A stretch of 19,945 bases of DNA from a virus (IMGVR_UViG_2627853844_000002); one strand, 5' to 3'. Shown: positions 7,542-11,353, counted from the stretch's first letter. A program made the numbers and translations. Notes: a model not told the origin generated them from the sequence alone.

Positions 7542-7754
7542 TCATGAAAGGTAAACATTGGCAGCTGAAGGGCCACGCAGACCATTTATCCGGCAAAATT
7601 CCACGCGTAATCCGGTGGTAATTTCTTCTGCATCGCGGAGATTGAGCGCTGAAACATGAAGCTGGACATCGATACGACCATCGGATGGGGTGATAAGACC
7701 CTTGCCGCTTTTGCCGTCAAAGGTTTTGACAATTCCTGTCATTTTACGGGACAA
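7542..7754 (-). CDS. cspF: Cold-shock protein family member CspF (70 aa)
   Basis: ORF translation [70 protein letters not shown]. Confidence 0.9.
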
Positions 7755-8054
7755 AAAAATTCCTTAATACTGATAACTTGGCGCACTATACACACGTTCC
7801 TGAAGAAAGCTATAGTTTTTTGATGGGGTTGAAGATGGCTGGATGTCTAAAATAAACATTGCTTCATATGTTCAACTATGCGTTAATGATTGCGTCGGTT
7901 TGAAGAACAGACGATATACGAAGTAGTTTACTAAAGCAGTTCTCATTTCAGGTGTTATTCACTTATTCCTTCTTTGAGTCTCTCCAATTAAGTACGAAGT
8001 CGTTTCTGTTATGCAAACCATTTATGCCGAAAGGCTCAAGTTAAGGAATGTAGA

Positions 8055-8270
8055 ATGTCAAATAAAATGACTGGTTTAGTAAAATGGTTTAACGCTGATA
8101 AAGGTTTCGGCTTTATTTCTCCTGTTGATGGTAGTAAAGATGTGTTTGTGCATTTTTCTGCGATTCAGAATGATAATTATCGAACCTTATTTGAAGGTCA
8201 AAAGGTTACCTTCTCTATAGAGAGTGGTGCTAAAGGTCCTGCAGCAGCAAATGTCATCATTACTGATTAA
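8055..8270 (+). CDS. cspB: Cold-shock protein CspB (71 aa)
   Basis: ORF translation [71 protein letters not shown]. Confidence 0.95.
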
Positions 8271-8381
8271 AATTCATCGCTCGTCTGTATACGATAACGA
8301 AGAAGGCTGATGCCTGAGTAGAGATACGGACAGAGTAGTGAATATTGGATCTCTTTAATAAAAAGTAAGGAGGTCCAATAC

Positions 8382-8417
8382 ATGAAACAATGGCTAGCAT
8401 ATTTGGCAAAATCTTAA
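8382..8417 (+). CDS. Candidate 11-codon mini-ORF (MKQWLAYLAKS) with a near-consensus Shine-Dalgarno
   Basis: TAAGGAGGT at 8366-8374, 8-nt spacer, ATG at 8382, stop TAA at 8415-8417; no other evidence of translation. Confidence 0.3.
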   Translation: MKQWLAYLAKS

Positions 8418-8551
8418 TCAGGAAAAGTATGCTAACCATTGTGGTGAAGTGCAGGTTTGCTGCATGAATAGTTTTACAGCAGAAGCTAACTGCTGGCATG
8501 GCAAAACAAAGTGCGTAAGTGGATGACTCCCACAAAAAGCACCACAATCTC

Positions 8552-8576
8552 AAACCCGCTCAGGCGGGTTTTTTAT
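8552..8576 (+). terminator. Rho-independent (possibly bidirectional) terminator between the cspB region and a convergent small ORF
   Basis: CCCGC-TCAG-GCGGG hairpin (8555-8568) followed by TTTTTT ATTAT. Confidence 0.7.
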
Positions 8577-8633
8577 TATCTGCTTTAAATATATTATTAA
8601 AATATAGAAAATACTTGTTACTAATAAAATCAA

Positions 8634-8804
8634 TCAGGCTACAGCTTTAAGATTTGTCTGGAATACTTTGTTGCAATGAGGGCAGATCAAAAGGGCACCT
8701 TTTTGTACTCTTGAAAAACTGTGTTCTGACTCTTGGGTGCAGTTTGGGCAGGAACATTTAACGAGATAATTACGGCGTGATTTTGAGTTTTTACGTTCTG
8801 ACAT
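8634..8804 (-). CDS. Small zinc-ribbon protein (56 aa; C-x-C-x2-C ... C-x2-C); possibly the small protein annotated as ynfU in recent K-12 annotations
   Basis: Internal Met of ORF 8634..8855: MSERKNSKSRRNYLVKCSCPNCTQESEHSFSRVQKGALLICPHCNKVFQTNLKAVA; AGGA SD about 8 nt upstream of the ATG. Confidence 0.5.
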   Translation of the reverse strand: MSERKNSKSRRNYLVKCSCPNCTQESEHSFSRVQKGALLICPHCNKVFQTNLKAVA

Positions 8805-9023
8805 AGGCTTTTCCTGTATAAATGGCCGTATACAGTACACTAAATATGAAAACATTTCTCGTATTATTATTTTATATATGACTTTCTTTCAAAATAATTA
8901 CCCACATTTTTAATGTGTATGTTTTTTTAGCGCCGTTGAGAACAACGTGTGCTGTCAAAACTACCCCGTAGACTCCGATCTTTTCAAACATATTGCACCA
9001 TCCGTGTACATCGGGGTGAGGAT

Positions 9024-9239
9024 ATGAAATCAATGGATAAGTTAACAACAGGTGTTGCCTATGGCACATCGGCGGGTAATGCTGGTTTCTGGGCATTGCA
9101 GTTACTCGATAAAGTAACTCCGTCACAGTGGGCTGCAATCGGTGTGCTGGGTAGCCTGGTTTTTGGCCTGCTGACGTATCTGACAAATCTTTATTTCAAG
9201 ATTAAAGAAGACAGGCGTAAGGCTGCGAGAGGAGAGTAA
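9024..9239 (+). CDS. essQ: Pinholin (S21-like class II holin) with dual-start MKSM motif (71 aa)
   Basis: Internal start of ORF 8949..9239: [71 protein letters not shown], closely resembling the phage 21 pinholin as recalled. Confidence 0.85.
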
Positions 9240-9243
9240 TCCA

Positions 9244-9551
9244 ATGACTCAAGACTATGAACTGGTTGTGAAAGGAGTCCGTAATTTTGAGAATAAAGTT
9301 ACGGTAACTGTAGCCTTACAGGACAAAGAACGCTTTGACGGTGAAATTTTTGACCTGGATGTCGCCATGGACCGTGTTGAAGGAGCTGCGCTGGAGTTTT
9401 ATGAGGCAGCAGCCAGAAGGAGCGTCCGGCAAGTCTTCCTGGAAGTAGCAGAAAAATTGTCAGAAAAAGTTGAGTCTTATCTGCAGCATCAGTACTCCTT
9501 TAAGATTGAAAATCCTGCCAATAAGCACGAGCGTCCTCATCATAAATATCT

Positions 9552-10941: not shown

Positions 10942-11154
10942 ATGTCTAACAAAATGACTGGTTTAGTGAAATGGTTTAACCCTGAAAAAGGTTTTGGTTT
11001 CATCACGCCGAAAGATGGCAGCAAAGATGTGTTTGTCCATTTCTCAGCAATTCAGAGCAACGATTTCAAAACATTAACTGAGAATCAGGAAGTTGAATTT
11101 GGTATTGAGAACGGACCTAAAGGTCCTGCCGCTGTTCATGTAGTGGCGCTTTGA
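10942..11154 (+). CDS. cspI: Cold-shock protein CspI (70 aa)
   Basis: ORF translation [70 protein letters not shown]. Confidence 0.95.
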
Positions 11155-11353
11155 GGTAGACAATATTACAAACCATATTCACTTTAGATGCCCGTGTTGT
11201 CATGGTTCCCAGTATAGAACATCATCTTTTGATGTTTCTGACATGAATCCTTTCGGGGCAAAATGTATCTTTTGTAAATCAATGATGATTACATTTGATA
11301 ATATTTCACAATACTTAAATGCCAGCCGTCTGTCGTTGGATTTAAAAAAGTGA
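11144..11353 (+). pseudogene. Zinc-ribbon-like reading frame (paralog of the 8634..8804 ORF) lacking any canonical in-frame start before its first Cys cluster; only the C-terminal 36 codons (ATG 11243) are conventionally translatable
   Basis: Frame +1 relative to cspI reads ...FRCPCCHGSQYRTSSFDVSDMNPFGAKCIFCKSMMITFDNISQYLNASRLSLDLKK*; an ATG at 11188 is out of frame by one nucleotide (ATG CCC GTG ... stops after 9 codons). Confidence 0.35.

Follow-up and report, generated by a model that had tools for sequence, protein, structure and literature searches.

An open reading frame of 56 codons with two paired-cysteine motifs, encoded between cspB and a holin gene in a 19,945-nucleotide stretch of viral DNA (IMGVR_UViG_2627853844_000002; the whole stretch is called the window here), is virtually certain to be ynfU of the Qin prophage of Escherichia coli K-12. 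The gene is already known and annotated, and it is not a discovery. New here are the restriction of its family to the Enterobacteriaceae, the constraint on its protein, a predicted promoter block of its own, a mostly chromosomal location, and its adjacency to cold-shock (csp) genes. Taken as a whole, these results are best explained if ynfU is a translated gene of Qin, carried as cargo, whose product is an accessory protein linked to Csp proteins or to RNA; we hold this composite explanation tentatively, at somewhat less than an even chance.

Identity, expression and conservation of YnfU

Over positions 8000-9300, the window matches E. coli K-12 MG1655 with 100% identity, and 1,618 of 5,426 complete E. 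coli genomes carry at least 80% of this interval. RefSeq annotates the matching stretch as the defective lambdoid prophage Qin, with the gene order ydfT/quuQ (antiterminator), cspF (minus strand), cspB (plus strand), ynfU (minus strand), essQ, ydfR, rrrQ, rzpQ, cspI, ynfQ, ynfR, ynfN and gnsB. This annotation bears out the placement given in an earlier note on the same DNA, which had put the gene in a prophage, between cspB and the holin gene, on the opposite strand and convergent with cspB. The K-12 locus tag of ynfU is b4776. Coordinates of the features discussed are collected in Table 1.

Table 1. Features of the window in and around ynfU.
Feature	Position	Strand	Remarks
cspF	7542..7754	-	divergent from cspB; third gene of the ynfU-cspB-cspF module common to many genera
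cspB mRNA with cspA-type thermoregulator	7894..8286	+	RF01766, 158.8 bits; coding sequence 8055-8270; converges on ynfU
Conserved structured RNA	8389..8552	+	about 165 nt, five helices; between cspB and the terminator; from alignment and covariation
G+C-rich hairpin AAACCCGC-TCAG-GCGGGTTT	8552..8571		8-bp stem; -12.8 kcal/mol; z = -4.7 against shuffles
ynfU coding sequence	8634..8804	-	56 aa plus stop; RefSeq WP_211180497.1, "putative zinc-binding protein YnfU"
Shine-Dalgarno AGGA	8812..8815	-	7 nt before the ATG; within a nearly invariant CAGGA(A/G) in 35 aligned upstream regions
Predicted sigma-70-type promoter	8832..8860	-	-35 GAGAAA 8860-8855; 17-nt spacer; -10 TACTGT 8837-8832
Alternative promoter-like site TTGAAA-18-AATAAT	8863..8892	-	consensus scan, 10 of 12 matches; Escherichia-specific
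Holin gene essQ (PGAP: essD)	9024..9239	+	first gene of the Qin lysis cassette; divergent from ynfU
cspI, then ynfQ (YmcF-like Cys-rich small protein)	10942..11353	+	second half of the csp gene cluster

The encoded protein, MSERKNSKSRRNYLVKCSCPNCTQESEHSFSRVQKGALLICPHCNKVFQTNLKAVA, contains the CSCPNC and CPHC motifs exactly as the earlier note had read them. It matches Pfam model PF23499 over its full length (107.3 bits, 3.5e-31, cut-off 27, model positions 1-49 of 49) and NCBIfam model NF038384, zinc_YnfU_fam, over nearly all of it (79.4 bits, 1.1e-22, cut-off 36, model positions 1-51 of 52). Between the protein and this family (PF23499; NF038384, "YnfU family zinc-binding protein") there is no difference: the gene is the same, both CPxC knuckles are present, and the size agrees. 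The family carries no assigned function in the databases.

Discovery of ynfU dates to 2019, when Ribo-RET, a form of profiling with stalled initiation complexes, revealed its translation (Weaver et al., bioRxiv 10.1101/511675). In a western blot of chromosomal SPA-tag fusions from the same study, the level of YnfU was the highest among the newly found small proteins and fell between those of AcrZ and YoaK, and the protein was well expressed at 37 C in rich medium. The discoverers also pointed out that YnfU has two CPXC zinc knuckles and that modelling matched it with the zinc domain of PA0128 (bioRxiv 10.1101/511675). RiboReport gives ynfU full Ribo-seq coverage and a peak at the translation initiation site, and PIRT-seq recovered the gene independently. 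YnfU is thus expressed at readily detectable levels in K-12. That such a gene is easily missed in annotation was true historically, until after the Ribo-RET work, but RefSeq now names it. Later papers repeat "possible metal binding," and one places ynfU in a pangenome cluster of prophage genes. The literature that mentions ynfU or b4776 reports neither a function nor cold induction, and in the literature searched we found no description of a link to Csp or YmcF neighbors or of a mainly chromosomal distribution.

In an alignment of 31 homologs, and across 88 loci, the conserved cysteines are C19, C22, C41 and C44. They form two knuckles, C19-P-N-C22 and C41-P-H-C44, with about 18 residues between them in a stand-alone protein, and are the predicted zinc ligands. 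C17 is dispensable, being replaced by Ser or Asn in Atlantibacter and in one Citrobacter among the 88 loci. The loop S26-E-H-S-F30 is invariant in the family, R32, Q34, K35 and G36 are conserved, and so is a basic N-terminus (R4, K5, R11); read directly from the sequence, the protein has 10 Lys or Arg residues versus 3 Glu. Distant small relatives (P0060-P0080) retain the pattern CPxC-x3-(S/A)EHS-x2-RV-x-K-x3-L-x-CPxC-x2-LF.

An exhaustive HMM search of 1.8 billion protein representatives found only 42 clusters, counted at 50% identity, at E <= 0.001, so the family is a narrow one. A word-indexed search returned 49 clusters, every one of them from enterobacteria and almost every one bearing the label "YnfU family zinc-binding protein," and the family is restricted to the Enterobacteriaceae. 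The median dN/dS over 945 ortholog pairs is about 0.11 (pairwise NG86, with synonymous sites saturated), which indicates strong purifying selection on the protein. Family membership, constraint and documented translation all uphold the claim in the earlier note that this is a genuine gene for a small protein of zinc-ribbon type. That note had proposed homology and expression as its checks; since homologs with conserved cysteines exist and expression is documented by Ribo-RET and Ribo-seq, the claim survives both, as a finding that was already known.

The convincing remote homologs among the 42 clusters are small stand-alone proteins, and the idea that some carry extra, function-revealing domains was rejected; where long proteins were matched, the match covered only a short Cys-rich stretch or the protein was a gene call with read-through (such as P0050 and P0057). 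Homology of YnfU to the csp-linked YnfQ/YmcF family (PF23641) was likewise rejected, as BLASTP gave no alignment and hhalign a probability of 4.6%.

Start site, promoter and downstream RNA

Mechanical listing of open reading frames gives a 73-residue frame from the ATG at 8855; the 56-residue form begins at the ATG at 8804. The Met at 8804 is kept in 85 of 88 loci, and the in-frame extension upstream of it is not conserved, so the 56-residue form is the true product. The longer form was rejected because several genera have an in-frame stop one to five codons before the conserved Met; its ATG overlaps the -35 element of the conserved promoter block. The ribosome-binding site that the earlier note had judged good is confirmed as an AGGA, reading from 8815 to 8812 on the coding strand.

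A block of about 60 bp is common to the upstream regions of ynfU in every genomic context (73 distinct loci). It consists, in order, of an A-rich stretch, xxGCxA, a 17-bp spacer, TAnnGT, a conserved CC, and CAGGA(A/G) placed 6-7 nt before the ATG. In the family consensus of the promoter, xxGCxA-17-TAnnGT, the G of the -35 element and the TA..GT of the -10 element are invariant. From its sequence, we infer that the block may serve as a promoter of sigma-70 type whose -35 element is weak, with transcription starting near 8825. In that case, ynfU would be transcribed as an autonomous unit with a short unstructured leader of about 20 nt. RNAalifold found no conserved pairs in 35 aligned ynfU upstream regions, and an Rfam scan of the ynfU strand gave no match, RF01766 included; a structured or thermosensing 5' leader for ynfU was rejected on these grounds. 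By the criterion of its leader, ynfU falls outside the cspA-type cold-shock regulon, and only the neighboring csp genes carry RF01766.

The alternative promoter-like site in Table 1 is not conserved in genera other than Escherichia. An older genomic SELEX study, carried out before ynfU was known, reported binding peaks of RNA polymerase holoenzyme, with sigma-E and with sigma-32, between essQ and cspB; they convert to positions near 8703 and 8561 of the window and are too coarse for promoter assignment. Stretches resembling Zur or Fur boxes by eye, GAAATGTT in E. coli and AATAATGAT in Raoultella, were discarded, because neither is conserved across genera.

On the other side of the gene, the earlier note had placed a hairpin at 8555-8574 and proposed it as a likely bidirectional terminator shared by ynfU and cspB. 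The hairpin is real (folding values in Table 1) but lies at 8552-8571. It is conserved in Escherichia, Citrobacter and Superficieibacter. The plus strand 3' of the hairpin reads UUUUUUAUUAU / TTTTTTATTAT, and with TTTTTTATTAT following the stem it is a textbook intrinsic terminator for the transcript of the cspB strand. After the stem on the ynfU strand comes GAGAUUGUGG / GAGATTGTGG; with GAGATTGTGG in this position, termination of ynfU would be only weak, or aided by the A-U pairs of the stem itself. Termination in both directions is therefore possible, canonical for the cspB strand but non-canonical for ynfU. Nor is the hairpin directly adjacent to cspB, from which it is separated by about 280 nt of conserved RNA.

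Regions downstream of cspB-like genes align well among Escherichia, Citrobacter, Superficieibacter, Kluyvera, Kosakonia, Scandinavium and Enterobacter.

The conserved RNA between cspB and the terminator includes five helices, which extend over about 8392-8548 of the window and in which 86.8% of cells form standard pairs, versus 29-53% in controls with slid partners, and in which 31 cells are changed on both sides, versus 11-17 in the slid controls. The covariation score is 0.224 versus 0.06-0.09, and none of 500 shuffles reaches the observed score. Frequent G-U pairs, together with a plus-strand consensus energy of -38.8 versus -34.6, argue that the RNA belongs to the cspB strand. A covariance model built for it finds matches in 20 sources, phages PHB10 and HannyBb among them; the clear ones are all on the csp strand and downstream of csp. 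In Yokenella, the RNA follows a csp gene other than the one convergent with ynfU. No RefSeq genome of E. coli has the element annotated; it matches no Rfam family and was not found described in a brief literature search. It may be a conserved 3'UTR or a small RNA derived from a 3'UTR. The notion that 8271-8551 is a degraded paralog of ynfQ/ymcF was rejected: the region has no nucleotide or protein similarity to these genes and is instead conserved structured RNA.

Genomic neighborhoods of ynfU

A scan of one genome per species gave 80 ynfU loci, all from Enterobacteriaceae except for a few contigs that are evidently mislabelled. Genes for cold-shock-domain (CSD) proteins were sought in 12-kb loci by tblastn with CspB and CspF. 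A CSD gene occurs no more than 600 bp from ynfU in 58 of these loci, while 22 have no adjacent CSD gene. When loci are clustered by the similarity of DNA lying more than 1.5 kb from ynfU, 21 flank contexts result, and CSD-adjacent loci occur in 17 of these independent contexts. At least four arrangements of csp around ynfU are seen: csp may be convergent with ynfU, in tandem with it, divergent from it, or upstream of it on the same strand. The pattern of cspB and cspF in Qin, where a second, divergent csp comes after the convergent one, also occurs in Citrobacter, Raoultella, Enterobacter, Kluyvera and Kosakonia. The Klebsiella oxytoca group has a tandem csp 174-200 bp downstream of ynfU, Salmonella and Phytobacter have a divergent csp upstream, and in some Enterobacter a csp on the strand of ynfU precedes it by about 220 bp. 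Apart from Qin-type prophages, all CSD matches in the 12-kb loci lie within about 1 kb of ynfU. In 11 of 12 representative loci, the neighboring csp scores above the gathering score for the cspA thermoregulator, RF01766.

Genes for YmcF-like proteins (PF23641, the ynfQ family) recur as well, next to ynfU in many loci. They are divergent from ynfU and 136-164 bp upstream of it in Kluyvera, Scandinavium and an Enterobacter, while in Atlantibacter, Phytobacter and Citrobacter they are no further than about 0.5-1 kb away. The gene for one distant relative, P0063, is likewise divergent from a csp-ymcF (CSD-YmcF) operon. In Citrobacter meridianamericanus (L016), gnsB-ynfQ-csp is divergent from ynfU and a convergent csp follows, which is the order found in Qin without the intervening lysis cassette. 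Such neighborhoods may mirror the co-mobility of small autonomous genes and not a shared function.

The surroundings of ynfU, in at least 15 genera, are mostly ordinary chromosomal ones. Among the flanking genes are budR/budABC in Klebsiella, thrS-infC-rplT and yniD in Kluyvera, pmrD in the Enterobacter cloacae complex, and tautomerase and GST genes in Enterobacter. Because the neighborhoods are mostly chromosomal and so many of the 80 loci have a CSD gene nearby, Qin appears to carry ynfU as cargo along with cspB and cspF, and we consider such cargo status, or a chromosomal origin of the gene, probable. Phage PHB10 has the whole ynfU-csp-csp module beside its integrase gene, not at the lysis genes. 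We read these arrangements as a mobile enterobacterial cold-shock gene cluster to which ynfU belongs and of which Qin carries part around its lysis genes.

Within Qin, ynfU has the attributes of a prophage moron: a conserved promoter of its own (predicted), a hairpin terminator (predicted) 63 nt downstream, an antisense position between Q and the holin gene, and a protein detected in the Qin-carrying strain K-12. The morons that lambdoid phages have between Q and the lysis genes, such as stx in Stx phages, are similarly accessory genes with their own promoter and terminator, and ynfU, like them, lies between the gene for the antiterminator Q (ydfT/quuQ) and the holin gene. Unlike the stx-type morons, ynfU is antisense to the late operon and belongs to a multi-gene csp cluster found outside phages as well.

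Fold resemblances and proposed function

An AlphaFold2 model of YnfU, built from the 31-sequence alignment, is of no more than moderate confidence, with a mean pLDDT of 66, rising to 72-74 over residues 11-50, with short strands (12-16 and 25-29) and one short helix. A Foldseek search of the PDB with this model returned no match at E <= 0.001. The top matches, which are non-significant (E 0.15-0.5, TM about 0.43-0.46), are HVO_2753 and small zinc-finger proteins bound to archaeal ribosomes, followed by the zinc finger of thioredoxin-2, Kti11 and MCM zinc ribbons. Searching PDB sequences with a profile similarly gave nothing significant, all matches having E >= 0.03, with L44e/eL42 (E = 0.03), Tim15 (E = 0.033) and PA0128 (E = 1.3) among these non-significant hits. 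YnfU may fold as a single C4 zinc ribbon, and its conserved cysteines suggest that it would bind one zinc ion. It appears to be a generic ribbon of this type, and its likeness to RNA- and ribosome-binding ribbons is suggestive only.

The best non-self Pfam match of YnfU is the N-terminal zinc ribbon of PhnA/YjdM (PF08274; PA0128, PDB 2akl), a C4 ribbon with CPxC-type knuckles such as is predicted for YnfU, at E = 1.3e-4; its score of 22.4 bits is below the gathering threshold of 30.8, and YjdM has an extra C-terminal domain that YnfU lacks. HVO_2753 (PDB 6ydh), the archaeal ribosome ribbons (9fhl_C, 9e71_Bc, 9znf_BV) and eL42/L44e share with YnfU a size of 50-65 residues and a basic character, and have the zinc-ribbon form predicted for it; in L44e the likeness is a local motif, CPxCxxxxEHSxS..KG. 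They come from archaea or eukaryotes, YnfU from enterobacteria only, and the matches have E >= 0.15 by Foldseek and the HMM value given above. Eukaryotic proteins with a CSD plus zinc knuckles (Lin28 and plant CSPs) offer a functional analogy only, in that a CSD and a small zinc module occur together. In those proteins the two are fused in one polypeptide and the knuckles are of the CCHC retroviral type; here csp and ynfU, or csp and ymcF/ynfQ, are neighboring genes, and YnfU would be a separate C4 zinc ribbon.

The mechanism we propose starts from the gene cluster. Qin would have picked up ynfU, cspB and cspF from an enterobacterial chromosomal cold-shock gene cluster, and in Qin ynfU would be a moron expressed in the lysogen, antisense within the late leader between Q and the lysis genes. 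Its product would be a small basic accessory protein associated with RNA, ribosomes or Csp proteins, and would share a pathway with the CspA-type RNA chaperones, in the adaptation of RNA or translation to cold. A Csp- or RNA-linked role, suggested by gene neighborhood, charge and a weak resemblance of fold, is the likeliest of the functions considered, although the balance is against it. The good expression at 37 C and the lack of a long structured leader like that of cspA argue that ynfU is not obviously cold-induced. The 22 loci that lack an adjacent CSD gene also speak against such a role, as does the chance that small autonomous genes just move in company.

Other functions are conceivable, and the accessory genes of phages commonly encode small proteins that bind zinc. 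The earlier note had suggested a phage regulator or anti-defence factor, and YnfU as a factor serving the phage, whether in the development of Qin-type phages or against host defence, would accord with that background, with the position of ynfU in a prophage, just upstream of the lysis cassette and divergent from it, and with the same position in several Escherichia phages and one Klebsiella phage; the distant relative P0066 is encoded on the opposite strand between the lysis and terminase genes of yet another prophage. Phage records that encode YnfU, however, number only 8 of 50,697, and most members of the family reside in the non-phage chromosomal settings described above. The predicted promoter is retained everywhere, and an orientation antisense to the Qin late operon fits poorly with a function in the lytic cycle. 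PADLOC gave no match at E <= 0.1, and PHROGs gave only non-significant matches to families without assigned function, the best having E = 0.0023, so that assignment to a defence or phage family was rejected. The suggestion is left without support; a phage-specific function is less likely than the Csp- or RNA-linked role, and we regard it as improbable.

That YnfU modulates one particular larger protein, such as a chaperone, a protease or an enzyme, for instance as an escort of Hsp70 in the manner of Zim17/Tim15/Hep1, is unlikely, with somewhat more in its favor. In the expectation of the discoverers, most small proteins work by binding to larger proteins (bioRxiv 10.1101/511675), and the surface loop SEHSFxRVQKG, which is conserved, would suit a protein interface. 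The non-significant Tim15 alignment is nearly full-length and crosses both knuckles, and the DNL-type zinc finger (PF05180) resembles YnfU in knuckle spacing and in several loop residues (S-x-H-S/T, KG and L-I-x-CPHC). Yet the match to PF05180, at E = 0.074, is itself non-significant and far under the family threshold (13.5 versus 27 bits); the D-N-L motif that should follow the second knuckle is not conserved in the YnfU family, whose sequences differ beyond C44; and nothing links YnfU to Hsp70, nor does a gene for a chaperone or other large partner recur near ynfU, where only CSD and YmcF-like genes do. Metal handling, that is, the buffering, storage or sensing of zinc, is the least probable, and we give it very little weight. 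It could draw on the database name "putative zinc-binding protein," on the four conserved cysteines in two CPxC knuckles, on a transcriptome preprint in which ynfU is loosely grouped with iron-related genes up-regulated together, and on a low-frequency polymorphism between ynfU and cspB in one silver-nanoparticle selection line of an evolution experiment, but neither paper holds mechanistic evidence for a metal role. When a 6-kDa protein has a single structural Zn(Cys)4 site, this typically marks a zinc ribbon whose fold the metal stabilizes and not a buffer, the ynfU upstream block by inspection contains no conserved sequence like a Zur or Fur box, and no genes for metal transport or homeostasis recur nearby.

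The Csp- or RNA-linked reading leads to a bolder one, which we think quite unlikely as it stands: that YnfU, and independently the YmcF/YnfQ-like protein, is a trans-acting zinc-ribbon partner of CspA-family RNA chaperones. If this were true, the pairing would be a "split" bacterial counterpart of the eukaryotic proteins that join a CSD to zinc knuckles, acting on RNA or the ribosome at transitions of temperature or growth, and the cluster of csp, ymcF, ynfU and structured 3' RNA would be a mobile module for cold adaptation, carried as cargo by lambdoid phages such as Qin. Short of that, ynfU is recast from a phage invention to enterobacterial chromosomal cargo of Qin. Few orphan small proteins of E. 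coli are expressed as well as YnfU. The conserved structured RNA beside ynfU is one modest lead, and the adjacency of ynfU to csp and YmcF-like genes is a modest new functional lead, one that gives a concrete hypothesis that is cheap to pursue: a phenotype on cold shift, and binding to RNA, ribosomes or Csp proteins.

Conserved elements in the 3' region of cspB

Between the stop codon of cspB and the terminator lies a structured RNA element, previously unannotated, that is found 3' of cspB-like genes in at least seven genera and in two phages, with a structure backed by covariation. No Rfam family matched the element. Around its last helix and the terminator, at window 8496-8574 (+), two matches fell below their Rfam thresholds, isrK at 18.3 bits (gathering score 50) and Trp_leader at 21.7 (gathering score 41); both probably reflect likeness to a terminator. 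The element may be either part of a 3'UTR or a small RNA derived from one.

A smaller hairpin closer to cspB is likewise kept 3' of cspB-like genes across many genera, with compensatory changes, GGC/GCC to GGA/UCC in Kluyvera and Kosakonia. It stays with the csp gene even at loci where csp lies upstream of ynfU, such as Salmonella L036 and L089.

The same region holds an 11-codon open reading frame preceded by a very strong Shine-Dalgarno sequence, TAAGGAGGT. The stretch that carries this Shine-Dalgarno sequence and the ATG is missing in one Escherichia sp. locus (L011) and is unconserved in the other aligned genera, and therefore the reading frame is probably not a conserved gene.

Features in the cspB-ynfU region and the ynfQ gene (window coordinates)
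Feature	Position	Strand	Remarks
Hairpin AGGC-UGAU-GCCU	8304-8315	+	inside conserved block ~8290-8322, shortly 3' of cspB stop codon
11-codon ORF	8368-8418 (Shine-Dalgarno plus ORF)	+	ATG at 8383; MKQWLAYLAKS, then stop
Structured RNA element	8389-8552	+	between cspB stop codon and terminator
Helices of the element	~8392-8437, 8438-8446/8540-8548, 8449-8465, 8477-8495, 8519-8533	+	
ynfQ	11165-11353	+	starts 10 nt 3' of cspI

ynfU homologues at other loci and in databases

Escherichia phage HannyBb (locus L096, 2950-3550) retains both ynfU, annotated there as the 73-residue form, and the structured RNA element; tblastn found no cspB beside them. The adjoining 2.5 kb is annotated as a series of hypothetical reading frames of about 30 codons, and no tRNA genes are present in it. 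At three loci from the Enterobacter cloacae complex (L092-L094, 4017-5180), the called ynfU homologue has Pro in place of the conserved start Met, and on its upstream side only 15 bp separate it from the end of an IS element that encodes a DDE transposase; the promoter and the native ynfU start have therefore been lost in these strains. Some database names among the YnfU homologues (P0002, P0007 and P0010), "Permease, cytosine/purine..." and "aspartate carbamoyltransferase regulatory subunit", are evidently mis-annotations, and the gene calls P0050 and P0057 run on into adjacent sequence.

RNA polymerase binding near ynfU, and the gene ynfQ

Genomic SELEX placed peaks for the sigma-32 and sigma-E RNA polymerase holoenzymes in the essQ-cspB spacer (Shimada et al. 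2017, PMC5493296), a result that predates the annotation of ynfU. By our conversion, the peaks at genome positions 1639072 and 1638930 fall at about 8561 and 8703 in the window; the data are too coarsely resolved for these peaks to be assigned to the ynfU promoter.

The product of ynfQ, whose annotated start codon is ATT, is a second Cys-rich small protein, unrelated to YnfU, with a CPCC...CIFC pattern, and is YmcF-like (PF23641). High conservation marks the homologues of this protein, which in several genera are recurrent neighbors of csp genes and ynfU.
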